A stretch of DNA of 64,000 nucleotides from a phage. Positions within the stretch are counted from its first letter, which is position 1. Each line of letters begins with the position of its first letter. The position numbers were made by a program, and so were the translations under genes. The stretch lies in sequence record OZ335961.1; one strand, written 5' to 3'. Below, piece after piece: positions 9,840 through 48,537 of this stretch. Under the pieces are notes generated by a model. That model searched no databases. It saw nothing but the letters and a program-made list of their open reading frames with translations, and was not told the DNA's origin.

Positions 9840-9854
9840 TCTTTGACGATTTAA

Positions 9855-9885
9855 GGGACCTTCGGGTCCCTTTAGTTGTTTTTAT
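9855..9885 (+). terminator. intrinsic terminator after gene 23
   Basis: GGGACC-TTCG-GGTCCC hairpin with UUCG tetraloop followed by a T-rich run. Confidence 0.75.
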
Positions 9886-9887
9886 GG

Positions 9888-9895
9888 TATAAATA
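9888..9895 (+). promoter_or_regulatory. late promoter core TATAAATA (gene 24)
   Basis: Exact match between terminator and gene 24. Confidence 0.6.
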
Positions 9896-9922
9896 AATCA
9901 TATAAACCAAAAGGAAAGCGCA

Positions 9923-14661: not shown

Positions 14662-14690
14662 TAGATATATTTATTACATGGTATTTAGAC

Positions 14691-16202
14691 ATGACTGACA
14701 TTAAAGTACATTTTTATGATTTTAGTCACGTGAGAATTGATTGTGAAGAAAGTACATTTCATGAACTCCGTGATTTCTTTAGCTTTGAAGCTGATGGGTA
14801 TCGTTTTAATCCGAAGTACAAATATGGCCACTGGGATGGACGAATCCGTCTTTTAGATTATAATCGCCTTCTTCCATTCGGCTTAGTCGGGCAAATTAAA
14901 AAGTTCTGCGATAACTTTGGTTATAAAGCCTGGATTGACCCACAAATTAACGAAAAAGAAGAATTATCAAGAAAAGATTTTGATGAATGGCTTTCTAAAT
15001 TAGAAATCTATTCAGGAAATAAAAGAATTGAACCGCACTGGTATCAAAAAGATGCAGTGTTCGAAGGATTAGTTAATCGTCGTAGAATTCTTAATCTTCC
15101 AACATCCGCAGGTAAATCTTTAATTCAAGCTTTGCTCGCTCGGTATTATTTGGAAAATTATGAAGGTAAAATTCTTATCATTGTTCCAACAACTGCTCTG
15201 ACAACTCAGATGGCTGATGACTTTGTTGACTATCGTTTATTCAGTCATACAATGATAAAGAAAATCGGTGGTGGAGCATCAAAAGATGATAAATATAAAA
15301 ATGATGCACCGGTAATTGTTGGTACATGGCAAACTGTAGTAAAACAACCGAAAGAGTGGTTCTCACAGTTTGGAATGATGATGAATGATGAATGCCATCT
15401 TGCTACTGGAAAAAGTATTTCATCTATCATATCAGGTTTAAATAACTGTATGTTTAAATTTGGTTTGTCTGGTTCATTACGTGATGGCAAAGCTAATATC
15501 ATGCAGTATGTTGGAATGTTTGGTGAAATATTTAAGCCGGTAACGACCTCTAAATTAATGGAAGATGGACAAGTAACTGAGCTAAAAATTAATAGTATTT
15601 TTCTTCGCTATCCCGATGAATTCACTACTAAATTAAAGGGAAAAACTTACCAAGAAGAAATAAAAATTATTACTGGACTCAGTAAAAGAAATAAATGGAT
15701 CGCTAAATTAGCTATTAAGCTTGCGCAAAAAGATGAAAACGCTTTTGTCATGTTTAAGCATGTATCACATGGTAAAGCTATTTTCGATTTAATTAAAAAT
15801 GAATACGATAAAGTTTATTACGTATCAGGAGAAGTTGACACCGAAACGCGCAATGTAATGAAAACCTTGGCTGAAAACGGTAAAGGAATAATTATAGTAG
15901 CTAGTTATGGTGTATTTTCTACTGGTATTTCAGTTAAAAATCTGCATCACGTTGTTTTAGCGCACGGCGTTAAATCTAAAATTATTGTATTACAAACAAT
16001 AGGCCGCGTATTACGTAAGCATGGTTCTAAAACAATCGCAACGGTCTGGGACCTCATAGATGATTGCGGTGTTAAGCCAAAATCTGCTAATACGAAAAAG
16101 AAATACGTTCATTTGAACTATCTTTTAAAACATGGCATTGATCGTATTCAGCGCTACGCAGATGAAAAATTTAATTACGTAATGAAAACAGTTAATTTAT
16201 AA
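14691..16202 (+). CDS. uvsW: UvsW SF2 DNA/RNA-DNA helicase
   Basis: 503-aa ORF with helicase motifs (PTSAGKS Walker A, DECH box in MMNDECHLATG); late promoter core upstream. Confidence 0.92.
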   Translation: MTDIKVHFYDFSHVRIDCEESTFHELRDFFSFEADGYRFNPKYKYGHWDGRIRLLDYNRLLPFGLVGQIKKFCDNFGYKAWIDPQINEKEELSRKDFDEWLSKLEIYSGNKRIEPHWYQKDAVFEGLVNRRRILNLPTSAGKSLIQALLARYYLENYEGKILIIVPTTALTTQMADDFVDYRLFSHTMIKKIGGGASKDDKYKNDAPVIVGTWQTVVKQPKEWFSQFGMMMNDECHLATGKSISSIISGLNNCMFKFGLSGSLRDGKANIMQYVGMFGEIFKPVTTSKLMEDGQVTELKINSIFLRYPDEFTTKLKGKTYQEEIKIITGLSKRNKWIAKLAIKLAQKDENAFVMFKHVSHGKAIFDLIKNEYDKVYYVSGEVDTETRNVMKTLAENGKGIIIVASYGVFSTGISVKNLHHVVLAHGVKSKIIVLQTIGRVLRKHGSKTIATVWDLIDDCGVKPKSANTKKKYVHLNYLLKHGIDRIQRYADEKFNYVMKTVNL

Positions 16203-25334: not shown

Positions 25335-25366
25335 TTATTATAACACAACACGAGGGACTTGTAAAC
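25335..25366 (-). promoter_or_regulatory. early-type sigma70 promoter (GTTTAC -35, TATAAT -10)
   Basis: Minus strand reads GTTTACAagtccctcgtgttgtgTTATAAT; near-identical block at 41306-41337. Confidence 0.5.
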
Positions 25367-27423
25367 TACATCTTGAACTTTTTAGACATTCCGTTGATGT
25401 TAACTAAAGAAGCTAAGATTTGAGAAACTTCGTTTTCCTCTTCTTTTGATTCTTCTACAAGGAATTGATTAAACCCAGCCATTAGACGAACTTCACCAGT
25501 TTCCATTAGATGATCGCCATCATATACCGATTCTTCTAATTGTTCAGAAGGAGGAACGATTGTGCCTTCGATTAGATACTTGTTATAAGCAGTTTCTTTC
25601 ATCATGTACGTGCTCACTTTATTAATCTTCAGCAAAATTCCACGCGGTAAAATAACTTCAGCTTCTGACGGAAATCCTGATAAATGACCCGGAACGATAA
25701 CTTTAATTCGCTCAGCTCCTTTAATTACCATACCCACGCTAGTTTCAGCATCTTCATTAGCATATGCAGAATGACTACCCATATGCATTAAATCTTCAGC
25801 ATCAACAGAACCTTCTCCTTCACCAGAAAATACTGCGCCGGAATCATCTAGAGACATATAGTTTTTACCATGCTCACCGAAGATATTTGGTTTAAGCGAT
25901 GTTGATACGAAGTTCTTAAAATAGAACATTTTATTTTCAATATTATGACGTAAAGTTTTAAAAGTAACTTCTTGCCCACGATAAAGCGTAGTTCCTGGAG
26001 GAAGAACTGATCCTTTGGCGAATGCAGAATCCAGCGTCTCGATGCGTTTAATAGCTCGTTCCATGTATTCTTCACGGGTAGAATCTGGTTTACCTAAGAG
26101 GAACGAGTTCATTTCAACATATGAATCTGCACAATAATCTTCAATTACATCAGACTCAGACTGAGTTAATCCTTTTGGAGTTACTTCGGTGCTTGCGTAT
26201 TCATATGCCTGAGCAGCAGATTCATTAATCAATTTATAAATGTTATTCATGACAAATTGAATAATAGCTACCTTTTCGTCTGGTGTGGCTTTAGAACCTT
26301 TAACTAAATCATTGATAATTTTCTTAATAACATCAAAGCTATTAGAAATATTAATGTCAGCGAGATCGCTTAAAATTTTATCAGTTTTATAATCAAAAAA
26401 TTCTTTATTCTTTAAATATTCTTGAGAACCTTGATATGTTATATCGCTCTGCAGCTTGATAGATGGATCACGTAAACGTGCATGGGCCAATGCAATATGA
26501 TTTCGGAAGCTTTCTAGTTCATAATCGTTAGATTTAAAACGAGAAGCACTTCTCATACCACCGATAGCTCCTTTGCTGAAGTTGGAACCAATCTGAATAA
26601 CACCAGAGTTCATTGGTCCTTCTGCTTTATATACCGGAACTTTAGATTCAAACTCTTGATATTTCTTGGCAGCGAAGCTATCACCCTGAAGTGAAGCATC
26701 GACAGTAGAATATTGAGCTTGTGCTGCTAATCGACGGCTAATTTTAGTTTTCTGAATAACAGCTTGATCCGTGCGCTTATCATTTTCTAAAGCAATAGAA
26801 GCAGCCACAGCAACGGCTTTAGGAACAGCATTACCTGTTTTAACATCTACATAAACATCACCAACCTTTGATTCAACTTTTGTGAATAACTCAGTTGAAA
26901 TAGGAGGTACACCTGGAATGTCTTCTAAATTGGCATTTTTACGGTAAACCATAATATATGCATACTTTTTATCATAATCCCAGATTTCTTTTAAAAGAAC
27001 ATATCGACCTGCTCCTTTAGTACGTACTAAACGGTCAGCAATAACTTGCATTTGACGAGCAGCGCCATTTGTTTTACTTTTTAGTACGCGGAATAGGCAT
27101 GCGTCAATTTTATACTGTTTCATTGTTTGAAGAGCAGTATCAAAAACCGCATTAATGACACCAATTGGATTTCCACCCAAGTTTTTAAGTTTAACTAATG
27201 ATAGTTTCTCATTGACACCTATCATTACGATATGCATCATTTTATCGCCTGGCTTAACGTTTTTATTTGTATCACCGCCAGAGGTGTATGTACAAAATCT
27301 AAATCCAGGAAGTACACTTTCTTCGCCGGCTTGAATAGCAAAAATTTGAGGTATTTTATGCTTAGGATTTAAGTTAACAACCGGCGCCGAAGCGCCGTCA
27401 AATAATTCTGTAATAAGTTCCAT
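25366..27423 (-). CDS. Alt-like mono-ADP-ribosyltransferase (second paralogue)
   Basis: 685-aa ORF starting MELITELFD like its neighbour; C-terminal R / STS / EAE triad (LYRGQ ... FVSTSL ... SEAEVILPRG); AAGGA RBS. Confidence 0.8.
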   Translation of the reverse strand: MELITELFDGASAPVVNLNPKHKIPQIFAIQAGEESVLPGFRFCTYTSGGDTNKNVKPGDKMMHIVMIGVNEKLSLVKLKNLGGNPIGVINAVFDTALQTMKQYKIDACLFRVLKSKTNGAARQMQVIADRLVRTKGAGRYVLLKEIWDYDKKYAYIMVYRKNANLEDIPGVPPISTELFTKVESKVGDVYVDVKTGNAVPKAVAVAASIALENDKRTDQAVIQKTKISRRLAAQAQYSTVDASLQGDSFAAKKYQEFESKVPVYKAEGPMNSGVIQIGSNFSKGAIGGMRSASRFKSNDYELESFRNHIALAHARLRDPSIKLQSDITYQGSQEYLKNKEFFDYKTDKILSDLADINISNSFDVIKKIINDLVKGSKATPDEKVAIIQFVMNNIYKLINESAAQAYEYASTEVTPKGLTQSESDVIEDYCADSYVEMNSFLLGKPDSTREEYMERAIKRIETLDSAFAKGSVLPPGTTLYRGQEVTFKTLRHNIENKMFYFKNFVSTSLKPNIFGEHGKNYMSLDDSGAVFSGEGEGSVDAEDLMHMGSHSAYANEDAETSVGMVIKGAERIKVIVPGHLSGFPSEAEVILPRGILLKINKVSTYMMKETAYNKYLIEGTIVPPSEQLEESVYDGDHLMETGEVRLMAGFNQFLVEESKEEENEVSQILASLVNINGMSKKFKM

Positions 27424-27426
27424 GAT

Positions 27427-29520
27427 TTATCCTTGAACGAACTTGTAAGGCATGTTTGCGATATCTATGCAAGACGCAATAATTCCAAGAGATGATTCTA
27501 CTTTCTGTTTAACATTTGATGAAACGAATGATGCAAAGTCAACTCTGTCTTCTATTTCAATATCACCTGTCATTGCAACTACTTCACCAGTTTCCATTAG
27601 ACGGTCACCGTCATAAATTACTGATTCGGTGAGTTCTTCCGTAGTCATAACTTCAGCTTGAATGAGTTTTGTATTATTAGATGTTGTTCCGTCATTATTA
27701 GAAGCATCAGTTATTTTATTAACTTTGACCATCAATCCGCGCGGTAGAATAACTTCAGCTTCTGTTGCTATTCCGAGACTTCCTGGATATACAACATTAA
27801 CTTTATGAGCTCCATCAATTGCCCATCCTATTTGAACTTTAACGTATTCAGGATTTTCTTTATACGCTCTTATTTCGTTTGGATTAATAGTTATTCCTTC
27901 TTCATTTTTATCAACTGTCAATTCATTACGAGCTTCTGGTTCTAAAAGACCAATACCAGCATGCGTAATTCCAAAACGTCCAAAAATGATAGGAGTTAAA
28001 GAAGTAGATACAAAATTTCTGAAATAGAACACTTTATTTTTAACTAGTGCTTCGTATATAGGAGCAGTCATACTTTGAGCACGATAAACTGTAATGCCTT
28101 CTGGTATACGATCACCATTTTCAAAAGCTGAGTCTAAGTTATTTATAGCAGATTCAATTTCTTTTTCACTCATTACATCATATCGTTCTGGATTGTAGCG
28201 GCCTAAAAGAAGATTATTGATGTCAGTATATCCTGATCCACAGTACTCTCTAATGCCGCGCTTTTGTGATGGAGTATATTTAGAACCATCACGGGCAATA
28301 GTAATATCAATCATTGGACCTGCACCAATTCCAGAAAAGCTATAAATCATTCTTTTGAGGAATTTAGTTTTTGCTGCGTTCCAGGAATTTTTAGTTATTT
28401 CTTCCCAGACTTCATCTGGCTGTCCTTTACGGGTTTTATTATGTTTATCAAGCCAAGTATCTTTATATTCTTCAAAGAATTTATTAATAGCTGCTGCATA
28501 CTTCTCTAAACATTTTATTGAAGTAGTTGGTTCATTTTTAATCGCATTAAGAATTACGTCTTTAATTTTTTCAGAAACTTCATTAACCTCACTTTTTGAA
28601 AAGAATTTATAATCATAGTGAAGTTCATCTGCGGTTCCTTCGGCAATAATTTTTGCTGCCTTAGTTTTAGAAGCTAATGAATTGATTCCAAGTTTCATTT
28701 CTTCTGCTTCGGGAATTAAAGGAGCTGTAGCAGGTTTATTGAAATTAGCTGCGGTAGATTCATACTTTTGGAATAATTCACTTTCAAATCTAGAAGATTC
28801 CAATGACTGGCTTTGTGCAATTGCTCTACGGGAAATTTTAACTTTAACGATTACAGCTTGGTCAGAACGTTTATCATTTTCTTGTGCAATAGATGCCGCA
28901 ATTGCCTCATTTTTAGTTACTTGAGCTCCAGTATCTTTATTGATATAAACATCACCGACCTTCGATTCAACTTTAGTAAAGAGCTCGGTACTAATTTCAG
29001 GAACTCCTGGGATGTCTTCTAATGATACATTTTTGCGATGTATAAGAATATATGCATACTTTTTATCGTAATCCCAGAGTTCCTTAAGAAGGACGTATCT
29101 GCCACCTGAACGACTGCGGATAAGTCTATCAGCAATAACTTGAATTTGTCGAGCTTGACCAGCAGTTTTAGACTTAAGAATACGAAGCATACAGGCATCA
29201 ATTTTATACTGGCGCATCGTCTGCATTGCAACAGTAAAAACTGAATTGATGTAATTAATTGGGCTTGGACCGAGACCTTTTAATTTAGCAATTGAACCTT
29301 TAGCGGTTAATGTAAAAGGAACAATGTGCATCATTTTATCGCCCATCTTTAAATCGCGATTAGTATCACCTCCAGATGTATAGGTACATAAACGAAAGCC
29401 TGGTTGTTCAATTGCGTCATCAACATGAACTGAAAAAATTTGCGGTATTTTCTTCTTTGGATTTAAGTTTGTAATCGGAAGAGTAGTATCTTCGTCAAAT
29501 AATTCTGTAATGAGTTCCAT
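27427..29520 (-). CDS. alt: Alt ADP-ribosyltransferase (head-packaged internal protein)
   Basis: 697/698-aa ORF (MMELITELFD; second ATG better spaced from AGAGGA); R / STS / EAE triad (VYRAQ ... FVSTSL ... TEAEVILPRG); minus-strand TATAAATA upstream. Confidence 0.85.
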   Translation of the reverse strand: MELITELFDEDTTLPITNLNPKKKIPQIFSVHVDDAIEQPGFRLCTYTSGGDTNRDLKMGDKMMHIVPFTLTAKGSIAKLKGLGPSPINYINSVFTVAMQTMRQYKIDACMLRILKSKTAGQARQIQVIADRLIRSRSGGRYVLLKELWDYDKKYAYILIHRKNVSLEDIPGVPEISTELFTKVESKVGDVYINKDTGAQVTKNEAIAASIAQENDKRSDQAVIVKVKISRRAIAQSQSLESSRFESELFQKYESTAANFNKPATAPLIPEAEEMKLGINSLASKTKAAKIIAEGTADELHYDYKFFSKSEVNEVSEKIKDVILNAIKNEPTTSIKCLEKYAAAINKFFEEYKDTWLDKHNKTRKGQPDEVWEEITKNSWNAAKTKFLKRMIYSFSGIGAGPMIDITIARDGSKYTPSQKRGIREYCGSGYTDINNLLLGRYNPERYDVMSEKEIESAINNLDSAFENGDRIPEGITVYRAQSMTAPIYEALVKNKVFYFRNFVSTSLTPIIFGRFGITHAGIGLLEPEARNELTVDKNEEGITINPNEIRAYKENPEYVKVQIGWAIDGAHKVNVVYPGSLGIATEAEVILPRGLMVKVNKITDASNNDGTTSNNTKLIQAEVMTTEELTESVIYDGDRLMETGEVVAMTGDIEIEDRVDFASFVSSNVKQKVESSLGIIASCIDIANMPYKFVQG

Positions 29521-29543
29521 CATATCCTCTCTAGTGTTTATTC

Positions 29544-33932: not shown

Positions 33933-34265
33933 TTATTTTACTACTTTCCAATGTTGCATGTCAAGTTTACCAACTTTTTTCATCTTCTCAATTAAGCGTT
34001 CGGCACGTTGGCGAGCTGTAACATAATACCATTCACCTAATTCATTTTGTTCAATTTTTCCAACGATTACTGTATTCAATTCATAAATCCAACCAGTAAA
34101 GAAATTATGAACTTGAATTGTAAAGGTGAAATCTGTTCCCATACCTTCTGTTGTTTCTACTTCAATAACATCACCTTCAACTGCCATTAAAAACCACATA
34201 GTTTCATCATATTTACCATTGAAGCATTTAGTTTTAACTGTAGCGTTCAGATTAATCGTTTTCAT
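33933..34265 (-). CDS. hypothetical protein (30.x cluster)
   Basis: 110-aa ORF. Confidence 0.55.
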   Translation of the reverse strand: MKTINLNATVKTKCFNGKYDETMWFLMAVEGDVIEVETTEGMGTDFTFTIQVHNFFTGWIYELNTVIVGKIEQNELGEWYYVTARQRAERLIEKMKKVGKLDMQHWKVVK

Positions 34266-34352
34266 TTTATTCTCCTTTGTTTGTGTAAGATAATACTATC
34301 ACAAAGGAACCATACTGTAAACAACTTTGTGCAATCTTTGAAAAATAAAAAA

Positions 34353-34371
34353 GGACTCCCGAAGGAGTCCT
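34353..34371 (-). terminator. intrinsic terminator after the 58-aa basic-protein gene
   Basis: GGACTCC-TTCG-GGAGTCC (minus strand) followed by TTTTTTATTTTT. Confidence 0.65.
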
Positions 34372-34375
34372 CAAC

Positions 34376-34552
34376 TTATGCTTTCTGCTTACCAAAACGA
34401 GAAGCATCATCTCGAAGAACCGCACGTGCTCGGCGCATGATCTTCTCAACAGTTTGATTGATACGAGAGTTCGACCCACGCTTGTAACCAGCGCGTTTAG
34501 AATCACCAACTTTCTTTTCAACTGCTTTCTTTGCTTTAGCTTGTTTTGCCAT
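34376..34552 (-). CDS. small lysine/arginine-rich protein
   Basis: 58-aa frame (MAKQAKAKKAVEKK...) with AAGAGA RBS and strong hairpin terminator (34353-34371); preferred over the overlapping 84-aa frame. Confidence 0.45.
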   Translation of the reverse strand: MAKQAKAKKAVEKKVGDSKRAGYKRGSNSRINQTVEKIMRRARAVLRDDASRFGKQKA

Positions 34553-34949
34553 TATAAATTCTCTTTTAAATGAAAATGCAGGACTTATTGGCATTGCCTG
34601 CGAAAGCCCTCAAGGGGTACTTAGGTTTTGAATATTTACCGACAGGATAACCATAAACCTCGTCAACATACCTTATAGCTCTTATCTGTTGCACACCGTT
34701 AGCTTAAAGGTTCCGGGTTCGATTTCTCGAGGATAAGATATATACTGATGGATATATAGGCCTTGAGGCGTACTCCCGATTGGCCATCACCTCGGGGTAG
34801 CATGCACTTGCCGCTATAAGAATAACATTCAAGAGGTACACCGTAAAACTGCCGGGGTCTTAAAACTATAATGATTCGCAAATCATTAGTCAGACAGTTC
34901 GACGGCTCCTCGATTTTAGCTCACACTAAGGCAGTGAATCTCCAATAAA

Positions 34950-35198
34950 TTACTTCAGTGTTACCACAAAGTGACGAACTGCTTTTCGTGCGGCAGAAGC
35001 CAGAGGCTTAGCATATTTAAGTTCATCTTTTTCCTGAAGCTCAGCAGCTAATGCAGTTTGAGCAGGATTCAGATGTTTGAAATAACGCAGGATTTCAAGA
35101 GCTTCGGCTTCAACATCAATAGATGCGCCATAGTTTTCGTGACCATTATTCCATGCGTTTCGTTGCAGTTCAAGAGCGTGTTGTAATTGTTTAATCAT
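34950..35198 (-). CDS. rIII: rIII lysis-inhibition accessory protein
   Basis: 82-aa ORF; minus-strand TATAAATA late promoter upstream at about 35337-35344. Confidence 0.85.
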   Translation of the reverse strand: MIKQLQHALELQRNAWNNGHENYGASIDVEAEALEILRYFKHLNPAQTALAAELQEKDELKYAKPLASAARKAVRHFVVTLK

Positions 35199-35345: not shown

Positions 35346-35681
35346 TCACTTATAAAGACACGGAATAGCTTTATAGTGACAGGTAACGAATTTTTGCTTA
35401 ATTTCTTTTGGCTGCTTAAGACCCAGAGCTACAAAAGGATGAGGAACGTTTCGAATTTGACCAACTGGAAGAGAAGTCAAATCACCAACTTCGCAGAAAC
35501 CTTCAGGAACATCAGGACCAACAGAGTGAACTACACACAGTTCAGGAACTTCACCTTGGACGCGTTTACCGATAATAAGTCCTGATTCTGTAACTTCTTC
35601 ATCACCGGCTTGTGCAGGTTCAGAAACTAAAATAACATATTCACCGACAGCACGAATTGGTAGCTGTTGTACTTCAGACAT
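35346..35681 (-). CDS. 31: gp31 co-chaperonin (GroES analogue) for capsid folding
   Basis: 111-aa [22 protein letters not shown]...; T4 length and position. Confidence 0.9.
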
Positions 35682-36046: not shown

Positions 36047-36283
36047 TTATTTACCTATTACAGTTTTAATATGAGTTGTTCCACGTTCTTTAAGAGTGGA
36101 AAGCAACTTTTGGCATTTTTCTAAATCAGATTTCCAACTATACGGTCTATCAATACAAACCCATTCTGACTTATAATACTGCTTCCATTTAGAGAAAAAA
36201 TATTTCTTATACTCTACAGCAAATGAAATGTTCTCGTTAGAATAAGAACTAATTGCTGTGAGCTGTACCAAACGAAATTTCAT
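36047..36283 (-). CDS. hypothetical protein (positional equivalent of T4 31.2)
   Basis: 78-aa ORF abutting cd. Confidence 0.5.
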   Translation of the reverse strand: MKFRLVQLTAISSYSNENISFAVEYKKYFFSKWKQYYKSEWVCIDRPYSWKSDLEKCQKLLSTLKERGTTHIKTVIGK

Positions 36284-36864
36284 TATTCACCACAGAATTC
36301 GTTGATATTTTCCCAGTTTAACTTATTTAAGTTTTTCTTAGGAACATTAAACACTTCAATACCTGCATTTCGCAGAATATCATCCCAGCCAGGTTTATTT
36401 TTATCATATGTTTCGCAATAAACCAGCTTTTTAATTCCAGATTGAGCTATCGCTTTTGCACAATCTGGGCAAGGAGAAAGTGTTACATACATAGTAGCAC
36501 CTTCAATTGAAGAACCATTTCGCGCAGCAAACAAAATCGCATTTAGTTCAGCATGAATTTCATTTTTAGACGACCATTCAGAATGAGCGCTACGGTGTTC
36601 TTTCGCCAAGACAAAACGATCAGTTGAACCAAACGATACACATTCAGGCTTATGACCTTGAATGATAGTATGTTTAGGTTTATTCAGTAACCAACCTTGC
36701 TCAGCAGCATAATCACAGCAGTTCACGCCCCCGGCAGGTGAACCATTATATCCGGTAGAAATAATACGTCCATTCTTTTCAATTACTGCTCCTACCTTCC
36801 AGGAGCAACATTTTGATTCTTGTGATACTAAATACGCAATTTGAAGTACTGTACTCGCTTTCAT
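36283..36864 (-). CDS. cd: dCMP deaminase
   Basis: 193-aa ORF with zinc-binding deaminase motifs HAELNAI and SPCPDCAKAI. Confidence 0.92.
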   Translation of the reverse strand: MKASTVLQIAYLVSQESKCCSWKVGAVIEKNGRIISTGYNGSPAGGVNCCDYAAEQGWLLNKPKHTIIQGHKPECVSFGSTDRFVLAKEHRSAHSEWSSKNEIHAELNAILFAARNGSSIEGATMYVTLSPCPDCAKAIAQSGIKKLVYCETYDKNKPGWDDILRNAGIEVFNVPKKNLNKLNWENINEFCGE

Positions 36865-37199: not shown

Positions 37200-37432
37200 A
37201 GTACGCCATACACCCTTTGTGCTTCAACTAATCCATCAAAATCCAATTTGAGATGTGTTATTTGGTCACCATCACCTGGATTCACAATTACTAATACTGA
37301 ACGAGGAGTTTCGGTAATAACACGAACCGATGTTTCTGGAAATCGTTCAGAAACCTTATTTACCAATTCCTGAGCAAATAGTTTAACTTTTTCTTGGAAT
37401 TCTTTAACAGTAATTGGTTTTTCGCTTAGCAT
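37196..37432 (-). CDS. hypothetical protein (cd-pseT cluster)
   Basis: 78-aa ORF. Confidence 0.5.
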   Translation of the reverse strand: MLSEKPITVKEFQEKVKLFAQELVNKVSERFPETSVRVITETPRSVLVIVNPGDGDQITHLKLDFDGLVEAQRVYGVL

Positions 37433-37953
37433 GTTGATCCCAGCTCCTTACTTTCAACGTTTTTAACTAATTTGACAGAAACTAATTCAGCATCTTGAGT
37501 AATCATTACCGGACCTTCTTCATACTCTTCGAGATACTCTAGAGCTTTCTTTTTAGCTTCTTCCTTCGTATCAGTTTGAGCATAGATATAAAACATACAA
37601 CCAGTAATACCTACTACTTTCCACTTAATTTCTTTATCAGCTTTAATTTCAAATTTACTGACAGAGTCATCTTTTTGAACTTCTTCGAAAAAAGAATATT
37701 CTAACATATAAGCAATTGAAAATAACGGGCTAACTTTATAGGATTCGCCCATTACATCAACAGCTTTATACCAGCAATCATCAATTTCACGTTTAATGCT
37801 AATAACATTTTTCGCAGGATCTATTTTTACTTTAAATGAATTTTCCCCAATAAACTGAGCAATTCGTTTATTAGCCCCACAGGTTTCATTAAAAATATCT
37901 TTATATCCAGCTTTAAAGCGATAAACCTTATCTTCTTCAAACCATTCGCTCAT
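37426..37953 (-). CDS. hypothetical protein (cd-pseT cluster)
   Basis: 175-aa ORF. Confidence 0.55.
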   Translation of the reverse strand: MSEWFEEDKVYRFKAGYKDIFNETCGANKRIAQFIGENSFKVKIDPAKNVISIKREIDDCWYKAVDVMGESYKVSPLFSIAYMLEYSFFEEVQKDDSVSKFEIKADKEIKWKVVGITGCMFYIYAQTDTKEEAKKKALEYLEEYEEGPVMITQDAELVSVKLVKNVESKELGSTC

Positions 37954-42955: not shown

Positions 42956-44125
42956 TTAAAAATATTTTTTAAAACTCATCATAACTTTATCATCAACATC
43001 ATTATCAATCTGTGCTACAAGGTAAGATGACAGTTCTACTTCCTGTGGCGCGGATTGAACATTATCAGAATTAAGGTATTCACGAATCCAAGGATACGGA
43101 TGTTTAACCGGAGCATCGGTAATTGGGCATGGAAGACCACACTGTTTCATACGAGATACAGTTAAGTAATCAATAAAGCTCCACATGCTATTTGTATTTA
43201 ATCCAGGAACATCGCCATCTTTAAATAAATGAACTGCCCAGTCTTTTTCTTGACGGTTAACTTCCATGAAAATATCAACTGCTTCTTGTTCACACTCTTG
43301 GGCGATTTTAACCCATTCATCACCATCAGTGCCAAGTTGAAGTTGACGAATAATATATTGGGTGCCTTTAAGGTGAAGCTGCTCATCACGTGCAATGAAC
43401 TTCATAATCTTGGCATTACCTTCCATGATTTCCATGTTCTTATGGAAGTTAAAGGTACATGCGAAAGATACATAAAAACGAATAGCTTCCAGTGCATTGA
43501 TTACATGAAGGCAAAGATAAAGAGATTTCATTAGTGCTTGTTTAGTACATTCAACAACTTTGCCTAACTCTTCTTTGCGAAATCCTTCTGATAAAATTCC
43601 TTCATAATCTTCAACCGCATTCTGATATTCACGAGTCTTAACTAGAACGTCATCATAATAACGACCAATAGATTCAGCACGTTTCATGATAGCTTTATCT
43701 AATACAATCTCATCAAATACCTTTGACGGATCAGTATAAAGATTTCGCATGATATGAGTATATGAACGGCTGTGAATAGTTTCACTAAAAGTCCATGTAG
43801 CAACCCATGTATCAAGACTTGGATCTGAAATTAACGACATAAGTACAGCAGACGGTGCACGACCCTGAATGCTATCTAGAAGTGATTGATACTTCAGGTT
43901 ATTAGTAAAAATATCTTGCTGATATTGAGGAAGCTTGTTAAATTGCGCAGCATCCATCATCAAGTTTACTTCTTCAGGACGCCAGAAAAATGATAATTGC
44001 TTTTCGGTTAAATCTTCAAAAACTTTATGGCGTTGAATATCATAACGCGCAATACCAAGACCTGAACCGAAGAACATAGGTTCTTTTAAAACATCAACTG
44101 GATTTGTATTAAAAACTGTAGACAT
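42956..44125 (-). CDS. nrdB: aerobic ribonucleotide reductase small subunit, uninterrupted
   Basis: Start at MSTVFNTNP (about 389 aa); continuous reading frame, no intron; TAATG overlap with upstream HNH gene. Confidence 0.92.
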   Translation of the reverse strand: MSTVFNTNPVDVLKEPMFFGSGLGIARYDIQRHKVFEDLTEKQLSFFWRPEEVNLMMDAAQFNKLPQYQQDIFTNNLKYQSLLDSIQGRAPSAVLMSLISDPSLDTWVATWTFSETIHSRSYTHIMRNLYTDPSKVFDEIVLDKAIMKRAESIGRYYDDVLVKTREYQNAVEDYEGILSEGFRKEELGKVVECTKQALMKSLYLCLHVINALEAIRFYVSFACTFNFHKNMEIMEGNAKIMKFIARDEQLHLKGTQYIIRQLQLGTDGDEWVKIAQECEQEAVDIFMEVNRQEKDWAVHLFKDGDVPGLNTNSMWSFIDYLTVSRMKQCGLPCPITDAPVKHPYPWIREYLNSDNVQSAPQEVELSSYLVAQIDNDVDDKVMMSFKKYF

Positions 44126-44856
44126 TAATTTTTCCTCTTTAAAATTCTGCCGTGTTTCCAACCTGGCGGTATAATATCATCTTTACCTATAAGCGTGCAT
44201 TCACTTCCATTATTAATCCATTTCTTACCGCGGATTCCTTTATAATCTCTTGGTTTTATTTTGTCAAACTTTGCATCAAGTTGATATGACCATCTAAATC
44301 CATAAGCATATTGAAATTTACCCTCGGCGCAATATTTGATATTTGACCCGTTTCCATTAACTGACCGGGACGCTGCTGCAATAGAGTGAAAAGTTTCTAT
44401 GAAATCCCCATCTAATGAGAATTTATGTATTTCTACAGATGGGCACGCATATCTATTCACGTTAGATACATGTTGTTTAGTTTCGTTTTTATGATGCTTA
44501 CCTAGCATTCCTTTAGGATGAGGATTATTTTTCCAATATTTCTTAAAGAACTCAGAATTAGCTTTAGCAAATAATTTTCTGTGTAAGCTGTACAATCTAT
44601 TATTAATTCTATTGCCAGCTTTATCTGTTGCCATTAGCGTTAATGCAGAGGCAAGTCCAAAATGGCCTTCATTTATCTTACACAGTAATAGATGTGCTAT
44701 AAAATGTTCTCTAGCTGTTAATTCAACTAAATTTTCTTTATCATCAGAACCTCCCATGCATCTAGGGATTATATGATGTGTCTCTTTATATTCTGATAAA
44801 GATTCCCGAGCCTGAGCTCGGGAAATTAGGTCGTTATAGATTTTTTGATAATTCAT
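44125..44856 (-). CDS. mobE: freestanding HNH homing endonuclease (MobE-like)
   Basis: 243-aa ORF with N-terminal HNH motif (HHIIPRCMGGSDDKENLVELTAREHFIAH) and C-terminal basic DNA-binding repeats; between nrdA and nrdB. Confidence 0.75.
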   Translation of the reverse strand: MNYQKIYNDLISRAQARESLSEYKETHHIIPRCMGGSDDKENLVELTAREHFIAHLLLCKINEGHFGLASALTLMATDKAGNRINNRLYSLHRKLFAKANSEFFKKYWKNNPHPKGMLGKHHKNETKQHVSNVNRYACPSVEIHKFSLDGDFIETFHSIAAASRSVNGNGSNIKYCAEGKFQYAYGFRWSYQLDAKFDKIKPRDYKGIRGKKWINNGSECTLIGKDDIIPPGWKHGRILKRKN

Positions 44857-47677: not shown

Positions 47678-48537
47678 TTACACCGCCATCTTTCCTTTAA
47701 TTGGCGGGTGAGATACATAGTTGTTAAGAACAAAATTATGCGGCTTTGCGAATTGACTCAACCAAAATACCTGCGATTCTGTGTCCCATTCATCAAATTC
47801 ATCTGGAAATTTTAATTGTAATTCGCATAAATCCATAGGTTCACGACGCAAAATTTCTTTACATTGTTCTACGTGATTCATATAGATATGAGTATTACCA
47901 CCAGAAAATATCAAATCTCCTGGAATAAGATTACACATCTTAGCTACAATATGAACTAATGCAGCATATGACGCAATATTAAATGGAAGACCGAGGAAAA
48001 CATCTACTGAACGTTGATACCACTGCAAATCCAAATAGCCATTACGCACATTAAATTGATAGAACATATGACAAGGTGGTAATGCCATTTGCTTGAGTTC
48101 AGCTGGATTCCATGCTGAAACAATTTGACGTCTATCATTTGGCAGTTTTTTAATACGATCAATAACTTCTATAATTTGGTCTACACCGCCAAAATCGCGC
48201 CACTGTTTTCCATAAATTGGACCAAGTTCACCGCTATGGTATCCTAAATCTTTTGCTTGGTTTTCGTAATTTTCATCCCAGACCGTTTTGCCTTGAATTA
48301 ATGAATCATGTTGAATTAATCGCAAATCATTGACATTTGTGCTTCCCGATAAAAACCATATTAGTTCAGCAATGCAAGCTTTCCAGGCGAGCTTCTTAGT
48401 CGTTACTGCAGGAAAACCTTTAGTTAAATCCCAGCGTAATTTAGTACCGAACAAAGCAATTGTTCCTGTGCCTGTTCGGTCATCGGTTTCATAGCCATTT
48501 TCCAGGATATCTTTAATTAAAAATTGGTATTGTTTCA

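Follow-up and report, generated by a model that had tools for sequence, protein, structure and literature searches.

What is carried by the gap between the genes rIII and 30.9 of a T4-like phage, where hairpins abound and no credible open reading frame (ORF) occurs on either strand? We addressed this question in a 64,000-nucleotide stretch of record OZ335961.1 (the window), for which the original prediction, made from the letters alone, had proposed a hairpin-dense structured RNA over the 355 bp at 34595-34949, to be read as a leader or 3' untranslated region (UTR), a tRNA-like remnant or the scar of a lost gene. The structured RNA was borne out: the compensatory (both-side) changes that were to be looked for across related phages were found at 30 of 44 base pairs. 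The extent had to be revised; hairpins are scattered along the stretch, but the main structure is one discrete element of 145-149 nucleotides (nt) at 34672-34820, which we call R1. Read from 34820 to 34672 on the minus strand, which also encodes the flanking genes, R1 is a conserved, strand-specific structured RNA with a complex fold.

R1 is a conserved, strand-specific structured RNA

In the window R1 comprises 149 nt including the 8-bp closing stem P1, and is enclosed by a perfect 8-bp inverted repeat, CTTATAGC (34672-34679) and GCTATAAG (34813-34820), that was absent from the original prediction. The R1 covariance model matches positions 34817-34674 (172.8 bits, E 4e-39), the sole copy in the 64-kb window. 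Its consensus comprises 44 base pairs in 8 helices, arranged as a four-way junction with P1, the long P2, the hairpin P3 and P4, bearing P5 and P6, as its arms. The parts are as follows:

34813-34820 (CUUAUAGC) with 34672-34679 (GCUAUAAG), minus strand: P1, the closing stem; 5 of 5 modelled pairs covary
34762-34812, minus strand: P2 arm, made of the GGC/GCC base, an asymmetric internal loop, helix P2 and loop L2
34810-34812 with 34759-34761, minus strand: GGC/GCC pairs, invariant in 23 distinct sequences
34802-34809 (AAGUGCAU) opposite 34762-34767 (CUCAAG), minus strand: asymmetric internal loop, invariant
34768-34801, minus strand: helix P2; 9 of 10 pairs covary; capped by loop L2 (UGAUGG, 34784-34789)
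34739-34758, minus strand: hairpin P3 (UAUAUAU/GUAUAUA); 4 of 7 pairs covary; loop L3 is CCAUCA (34746-34751)
34680-34738, minus strand: P4 domain, enclosing P5 and P6
34732-34738 (UCUUAUC) with 34680-34686 (GAUAAGA), minus strand: P4; 5 of 7 pairs covary
34719-34730, minus strand: P5, a UCGA-GAAA-UCGA hairpin inside P4; 4 of 4 pairs covary
34714-34718 (ACCCG) with 34693-34698 (CGGUGU), minus strand: P6, inside P4; 2 of 5 pairs covary
34699-34713 (GAACCuuuaaGCUAA), minus strand: P6 loop, 15 nt
34687-34692 (GCAACA), minus strand: P6/P4 junction strand, closing the P4 domain

An alignment of homologs drawn from the phage collection, IMG/VR and metagenomes comprised 23 distinct sequences, in which 98.7% of 1011 pair cells showed canonical pairing; most copies are closely related, with fewer independent events than these cell counts imply. 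Not one of 500 column shuffles matched the observed values on any of five measures, a shift of the 3' partners by 1-3 columns lowered the paired cells to 27-42%, and a separate MAFFT/RNAalifold run recovered the same helices. It is because of this comparative evidence, namely covariation, shuffles and slid controls, and not because of folding energy, that R1 is taken as more than chance. Whole sets of pairs are exchanged in P1, as UAAAC/GUUUA in JD18, CAUAC/GUAUG in Serratia SP1 and AUUAG/CUAAU in JC221, and P6 changes from CCCGG/ACGG to CCUGG/ACAG in the Slopekvirus-type copies. The alignment also discriminates between the strands, with 53 G·U pairs and 13 mismatches on the minus strand vs. 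1 G·U pair and 65 mismatches on the plus strand. Since G·U pairs are tolerated only on the minus strand, the polarity of R1 is that of rIII and 30.9.

These counts bear on the reading of the locus as a plus-strand tRNA-like remnant, or as the scar of a lost or frameshifted protein gene, to which we give practically no credence. On the plus strand there are a 7-bp "acceptor-like" pair, TCTTATC/GATAAGA (34680-34686 and 34732-34738), and the motif GGTTCGATT (34716-34724), described earlier as T-loop-like, and some database records annotate short hypothetical ORFs across R1. The pair and the motif are present as described, but their tRNA-type interpretation did not hold, as evidenced by: 1) the pair is helix P4 and spans just 59 nt; 2) GGTTCGATT is the antisense of the P5 hairpin; 3) ARAGORN, run on the entire window, found 0 tRNA or transfer-messenger RNA (tmRNA) genes, and neither type had an Rfam match at E<=10; 4) the plus strand carries the 65 mismatches, against 13 on the minus strand. 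As for a lost gene, no homolog has a conserved open frame across R1: stop codons (1-5 per frame) lie in all six frames of 22 of the 23 distinct homologs, the remaining one having a single stop-free frame, so that no intact ORF in relatives was found, and substitutions track base-pairing, not codon positions. Public records (e.g. JN986846, MK327940 and PQ537380) place "hypothetical protein" ORFs across R1; these are very likely false gene calls, and the consequence for annotation is that spurious ORFs of this kind lie over R1 in many genome records.

Beyond the helices, a mutual-information scan of the unpaired columns flagged L2 and L3, which are Watson-Crick complementary over 6-7 nt in 23 of 23 homologs. 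This complementarity survives seven loop sequence combinations (e.g. CGAUGG/CCAUCG, UGAUGG/CCAUCA, CUAUGG/CCAUAG, CAAUGA/UCAUUG, UUGUAUU/AAUACAA and UGCAUU/AAUGCA), vs. a mean of 3.6 complementary nt in non-cognate loop pairs, and each cognate pair was equalled by only 0.2-0.8% of composition-preserving shuffles. The pattern is that of a kissing-loop interaction between L2 and L3; sequence alone does not tell if it forms within one molecule or between molecules.

Were L2 and L3 to pair between molecules, R1 would be a multimerising scaffold RNA, forming protein-holding dimers or rings in the manner of the packaging RNA (pRNA) of phi29, a role we find very unlikely. The loop complementarity is maintained by covariation, the same line of evidence by which phi29 pRNA was shown to pair between molecules, and the P2 arm (~15 pairs plus the internal loop) is far longer than P3 (7 pairs), with an intramolecular kiss needing a sharp bend. 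However, adjacent junction arms can kiss intramolecularly if the conserved internal loop bends P2, and in the lysine riboswitch adjacent arms of one junction do kiss within the molecule. In addition, no Rfam family, pRNA included, matches R1, T4-type packaging motors are not known to require an RNA, and R1 is dispensable in close relatives.

Amid the covarying helices, 29 unpaired nucleotides of R1 are invariant, this core being located in the internal loop, the P6 loop and the P6/P4 junction strand. The motif GGCAAG.GCAUG is unvarying across the 23 distinct sequences, and ACC.GGA.CC and GCUAAC.GUG.GCAAC in the P4 domain show no or almost no variation. Small self-cleaving ribozymes are self-contained, work in any context and often combine a junction, loop-loop contacts and an invariant core. 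R1, with its multi-helix junction, loop-loop contacts and invariant unpaired core, and its location between cistrons or in a 3' UTR, could by this analogy be a new class of self-cleaving or catalytic RNA that processes its transcript (rIII-30.9, or the uvsY operon in the second context described below) at a fixed site. We deem this distinctly unlikely, as no Rfam 15 ribozyme model matched even at E<=10 with permissive filters, and no cleavage-site signature was recognised in R1.

Two likenesses noted in this part of the molecule were discarded. The internal loop does not match the consensus of a K-turn or a GNRA receptor, and the Slopekvirus-type copies have a P5 loop other than GNRA; an 8-nt complementarity between CCUCAAGG in the junction and a downstream hairpin is not kept in other lineages and was treated as chance.

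Distribution, genomic contexts and the cassette slot

BLAST against 50,697 phage records revealed that the flanks of the gap are common to ~1000 T4-like phages, whereas a core of 135-150 bp (34672-34820) behaves differently. R1 is found in ~407 phage records, as one copy per genome, in many Straboviridae genera; the carriers comprise a subset of Tequatrovirus together with Mosigvirus, Jiaodavirus, Karamvirus, Kanagawavirus, Kagamiyamavirus, Serratia phages and others, with Escherichia, Shigella, Klebsiella, Enterobacter, Yersinia, Salmonella, Serratia and others as hosts. Core identity is 91-96% in Klebsiella (Jiaodavirus), Enterobacter and Edwardsiella phages and 84-85% in Serratia phage SP1 and Karamvirus phage PS49. 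In most comparisons R1 is better conserved than the adjoining rIII and gp31, with 82-92% identity to the copies in JD18, PEi20, Serratia SP1 and PS49 against 60-76% for those two genes; in one comparison, with Serratia SP1, 30.9 is conserved about as well as R1. T4, T2 and T6 all cleanly lack R1 in the alignment of the region downstream of rIII that had been proposed as a check, and the 155-bp window segment 34670-34824, which matches the extent of R1, corresponds there to 2 bp in T4.

Among the rIII loci in IMG/VR, 15 of 40 carry R1. Pattern scans of IMG/VR and metagenomes gave model-supported matches only in contigs of T4-like enterobacterial phages; the other pattern matches were without model support, and the six inspected in the metagenome scan are unrelated, apparently protein-coding sequence. 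Two pattern scans of 185,579 prokaryotic (bacterial and archaeal) genomes returned 0 and 3 matches, the 3 being chance matches without model support, and BLAST found no match in E. coli genomes and plasmids.

Two genomic contexts were recognised. In the inspected carriers of the main genera R1 lies between rIII and 30.9. P1 starts 9 nt past the rIII stop codon in one of the relatives (L017) and a few nt further downstream in two others (L032 and L038); the 9-nt distance suggests, by position, that R1 is read as part of the rIII transcript. The second context is of Slopekvirus/Pseudotevenvirus type: JC221, Olmo, K41P2 and two IMG/VR contigs have a diverged R1 (95-109 bits) in the uvsY-operon 3' UTR, beyond the small ORFs that come after uvsY and uvsY.-2. 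A stretch of 190-350 nt devoid of a conserved ORF separates this copy from a terminator shared with the convergent uvsW.1. A candidate conserved small ORF 3' of R1 in this context was rejected, the frames differing between JC221 and K41P2.

Further sequence was noted on both sides of R1 in the uvsY context. The motif CATAAATA (JC221 and K41P2) or TAAATATAAT (Olmo) stands 6-8 nt before P1 (L048 ~2640-2660, L036 ~1645-1660 and L047 ~2640-2655); it resembles the T4 late promoter TATAAATA or a -10 box, and R1 may have a promoter of its own there. Past R1, the Slopekvirus-type 3' UTR harbors further blocks common to JC221 and K41P2, e.g. CGCCGUCCGAUGGAGUUUACCUUCGGCG (L048 2290-2480 and L036 1140-1480), which may be additional RNA structures.

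Within Tequatrovirus, R1 occupies a slot bounded by CUCUUGAAUGU and AUG(A/U)UGACG. The slot holds R1 in this window and an unrelated hairpin of ~55 nt in T2 and many others, and is empty in T4, giving three allelic states or more; in SH-1 and EP01 the deletions at the slot are larger. Relatives with a 100% identical rIII lack R1, some of these contigs holding the ~55-nt hairpin instead. The presence or absence of R1 among near relatives means that it is dispensable and has been repeatedly gained or lost. The ~55-nt hairpin cassette, ACUAUCACGCGUCAGAAAAAGGUUAUCUGUCUAAGUCGUGG, was seen in L079, L081, L085-L087, L090, L092, L094 and T2 (L076) at the slot equivalent to 34670-34824, and in some relatives it shows a compensatory change of its own (CAGA/UCUG to CAGC/GCUG).

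Such traffic might be that of a DNA-level recombination or regulatory cassette akin to the PeSL elements, or of a selfish insertion, with no function at the RNA level, which we regard as barely plausible. R1 is present or absent between near-identical phages, has two genomic locations with permuted module order, and PeSL-type shuffling has a precedent in T4-like phages (PMC2839356, PMC4122927). However, a DNA cassette leaves the 30 compensatory pairs, the covarying loops and the one-strand G·U pairs unexplained; R1 lacks the sigma-70-type promoter and the Shine-Dalgarno/start codon that PeSLs have, and its 145 nt with 29 invariant unpaired bases are far more complex than a PeSL.

Other small structures lie in the 30.9 5' UTR (M2 and a GC hairpin, the modules of permuted order) and in the stretch upstream of R1:

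34622-34664, minus strand: M2, a candidate H-type pseudoknot (GACGAGG..UAUGGUU..CCUGUC..GGUAAAUAUUCAAA..ACCUA), in the 30.9 5' UTR, outside R1
34604-34620, minus strand: small GC hairpin GUACCCCUUGAGGGCUU (GUACCC-loop-GGGCUU); stem conserved, loop variable; kept in T4
34869-34888, minus strand: upstream AU-rich hairpin, UAAUGAUU-UGCG-AAUCAUUA, perfect, overlapped by a weak sigma-70-like match
34835-34859, minus strand: upstream hairpin GACCCCGGCAGUUUUACGGUGUACC, also in T4; its stem resembles P6 (ACCCGG...ACGGUGU)

M2, which is also present in T4, appears to comprise two interleaved stems and a conserved CGUUAAAUA..CAAAA loop; across 13 sequences its 12 pairs were 82.5% canonical vs. 35-53% when slid, with both-side changes at 8 pairs. 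It lies downstream of R1 in the window and upstream of R1 in JD18, PEi20 and Serratia SP1. The GC hairpin accompanies R1 in both genomic contexts, directly after it in JD18 and PEi20, close after it in K41P2 and before it in PS49 and EcS1. It scanned as terminator-like on the plus strand only, and is not a classical terminator because there is no U-tract on the gene strand. The hairpin resembling P6 could be a partial duplication or chance, and the stretch 34835-34888 that comprises both upstream hairpins is kept in T4 and T2, which lack R1, and lost in SH-1 and EP01.

The arrangement of these modules is relevant to a cis-regulatory reading, in which R1 would be a riboswitch-like aptamer or protein operator in the 30.9 5' UTR, with binding to the core altering the stability of P1 and hence read-through, translation or decay of the 30.9-30.x early genes. 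R1 has the architecture typical of aptamers (a variable P1 junction, distal kissing loops and an invariant core), it stands between rIII and 30.9 in roughly 95% of carrier records, and the rest of the UTR has further conserved structures in M2 and the hairpin. We nevertheless consider this reading unlikely, as evidenced by: 1) no expression platform is conserved, P1 being followed by M2 in the window, by the GC hairpin in JD18 and PEi20 and by other sequence elsewhere; 2) R1 is ~120 nt from the 30.9 start in the window; 3) JC221, K41P2 and Olmo have no gene between R1 and the terminator; 4) phages with the same rIII and 30.9 manage without R1; 5) no known riboswitch family matches.

The segment in the window is that of a Tequatrovirus (T4-like) phage, and every gene around the gap is on the minus strand, in the order cd, 31.2, 31.1, gene 31, rIII, gap, 30.9 and 30.8:

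36283-36864, minus strand: cd, followed by 31.2 and 31.1
35346-35681, minus strand: gene 31
34950-35198, minus strand: rIII, 82 amino acids (aa), the upstream neighbour; phrog_1457, lysis inhibition accessory protein (E 5e-44), named rIII in related records
34376-34552, minus strand: 30.9, 58 aa, basic, the downstream neighbour; phrog_1427, function unknown (E 2e-31), named 30.9 in the T4 annotation
34372-34351, minus strand: intrinsic terminator, directly after 30.9
33933-34265, minus strand: 30.8

The ATG at 34552 (MAKQAK..., 58 aa as in T4) is most likely the start of 30.9, which makes the non-coding gap ~34553-34949, somewhat larger than 34595-34949. The features that had been described for it were all reproduced. 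Within 34595-34949 there are minus-strand frames of 60 aa (TTG) and 45 aa (GVG/GTG) and plus-strand frames of 25-26 aa, none a credible ORF, and the perfect 8-bp hairpin TAATGATT-CGCA-AATCATTA is found at 34869-34888. The G+C enrichment reported over 34741-34860 (49%) was measured at 49.2%; G+C is 43.9% over 34595-34949 and 47.0% over the RNA, with a window mean of 36.4%, and 1.8% of the 149-nt windows in the 64 kb reach 47%. The absence of a promoter consensus also held, with one weak sigma-70-like match (minus strand, 34893-34865, 9/12), a regional count not above that of shuffles, and no promoter-like site found inside 34672-34820.

Some observations concern other parts of the window. At 25366-29523 on the minus strand there are two tandem full-length alt-like ORFs (685 and 698 aa), where T4 has one alt and the truncated remnants alt.-1 and alt.-2; the cd.2 and cd.3 homologs are separated by an additional ORF of 175 aa (37426-37953, minus strand), in a 520-bp segment not in T4. 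Compared with T4, the phage of the window is without segD, segE, the nrdB intron with I-TevIII, mobE and the td intron with I-TevI (sites ~9850-9911, 14677-14697, 43458-43461, 44126-44687 and 47989-47990), and none of the T4 homing-endonuclease insertions in the 48-kb stretch compared is present. In two IMG/VR contigs (L117 and L118, of 97 and 150 kb), positions 1501-1640 hold only the C-terminal half of a rIII-like gene, with the same 16 nt that follow the rIII stop in the window, amid a cluster of 12 tRNA genes; this looks like a piece of the T4-type rIII region moved into the tRNA array of another phage.

Possible function of R1

We tentatively favor, at a little under an even chance, the explanation that R1 is a self-contained module that binds a ligand or a protein and serves an accessory role, and is not a leader of 30.9. 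R1 would fold compactly as an RNA module in its own right, its invariant unpaired core of ~29 nt forming a pocket or surface that specifically binds a small molecule or a protein of host or phage. It would act independently of the identity of the downstream gene, as a stable mRNA domain or as a processed RNA, and would confer an accessory function that is gained and lost as a cassette, as with host-takeover or counter-defence factors, rather than serving as a switch leader for 30.9. We surmise that this module is likelier than a 30.9 leader because: 1) the R1 sequence holds while its neighbours change; 2) one context is without a downstream gene; 3) R1 comes and goes as a unit between near-identical phages. 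The expectation of a leader or 3' UTR is correct insofar as R1 lies physically in the rIII 3' UTR and the 30.9 5' UTR, but a leader dedicated to 30.9 is disfavored because the module positions vary and the second genomic context has no downstream gene.

Several points weigh against a self-contained binding module. The alignment used for the pair counts was partly fitted to the covariance model and leans toward structure, with the independent MAFFT/RNAalifold run in agreement, and the z-score of single-sequence folding is only -1.9, which is unremarkable. The L2-L3 pairing could join two molecules instead of folding one, and the invariant nucleotides could serve catalysis just as well. Moreover, most carriers have R1 upstream of 30.9, where a cis effect on that cluster is possible.

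We further postulate, as a possible but doubtful extension, that R1 might be the founding member of a new RNA class of T4-like phages, either a self-cleaving ribozyme or an aptamer, carried as a swappable cassette; as an aptamer it would sense or sequester a host protein or small molecule during infection, for example an RNA-binding factor of defence or housekeeping, or a signal derived from a nucleotide. T4-type phages are among the best-studied viruses, yet R1 seems to have escaped description: none was found in a literature search, whose reach stopped short of large unpublished or supplementary motif catalogues. R1 was probably overlooked because T4, T2 and T6 lack it. It bears the marks of a functional RNA with a complex fold, namely a four-way junction, a covarying kissing loop and ~29 invariant unpaired nt, and RNAs with such features have repeatedly proved to be riboswitches, ribozymes or specific protein partners. 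With ~400 sequenced therapeutic and environmental phages carrying R1, and with natural isogenic-like phage pairs that differ in its presence, the function is directly testable.

Comparison with known RNA families and systems

Against the 4227 models of Rfam 15, which include riboswitches, ribozymes, pRNA and phage motifs, no match at E<=10 fell inside 34595-34949, and none was obtained for 34655-34835 with permissive filters; the Rfam scan that had been suggested returned no family for R1, and ARAGORN no tRNA. The sole nearby matches, Atu_C8 and Phe_leader (34337-34420), are below threshold and represent the 30.9 terminator hairpin. Three likenesses were also pursued and rejected: 1) mimicry of rRNA, with GGGAGUACG.CC.CAAGG resembling 16S rRNA 885-903 and an 11-mer on the other strand, gave a local alignment to the rrnH operon no better than 22% of shuffles; 2) a by-eye likeness to the SAM-I riboswitch (UCUUAUC...CCCGG.AACC...GGUG...AGAUAAGAG) found no support in Rfam, and the UCUUAUC stem shows unrestricted covariation; 3) kinship with T4 rnaC/rnaD was not borne out when the R1 model was run with filters off on the T4 tRNA region, the best match (7.8 bits, E 0.29) not lying on rnaC/rnaD.

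In general features, R1 nonetheless compares with several systems. Like T4 rnaC/rnaD (the species 1 and 2 RNAs, 119-139 nt), it has the size of a stable RNA, is non-coding, occurs in T4-type phages and is of unknown function; unlike R1, which lies in mRNA UTRs and is not in T4, rnaC/rnaD sit in the tRNA cluster and are processed with the tRNAs. With the PeSL cassettes, which drive module shuffling in T4-like phages (PMC2839356, PMC4122927), R1 shares the character of a short non-coding module that is shuffled, and gained or lost among close relatives, in similar intergenic slots. A PeSL is a simple stem-loop with a sigma-70-like promoter and a Shine-Dalgarno/start codon (PMC4122927), whereas R1 has neither of the latter two and a complex fold that is constrained at the RNA level.

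The closer resemblances are architectural. The phi29-family pRNA is, like R1, a phage RNA (~120-170 nt) with loops that stay complementary by covariation; its pairing is intermolecular and serves the packaging motor, while R1 is dispensable, occurs in unrelated phages and has no detected similarity to it. Hammerhead, hairpin and twister-sister ribozymes have no Rfam match in R1, nor does R1 show a recognisable cleavage-site motif; like them, R1 is self-contained and context-independent, with an invariant unpaired core among covarying helices in phage non-coding sequence. The lysine and purine riboswitch aptamers consist of a multi-helix junction with a variable P1, apical loops that pair and conserved unpaired nucleotides. 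R1 differs from these riboswitches in that it is without sequence or model similarity to them, without a conserved expression platform, known only from phages and found in one context without a downstream gene; of what defines a riboswitch, it has the conserved structured aptamer with an invariant core and tertiary contacts, and lacks the conserved platform together with a downstream gene. It shares with their aptamers a junction with a variable P1, neighbouring kissing hairpins, a conserved unpaired core and a size within 70-180 nt. From these likenesses we infer that a variable closing stem, a covarying periphery, a loop-loop contact and an invariant core give R1 the look of aptamers, small ribozymes and protein-binding RNAs. 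The nearest known systems, none of them a relative, are architectural analogues of R1: the lysine and purine aptamers, the junction ribozymes and pRNA.

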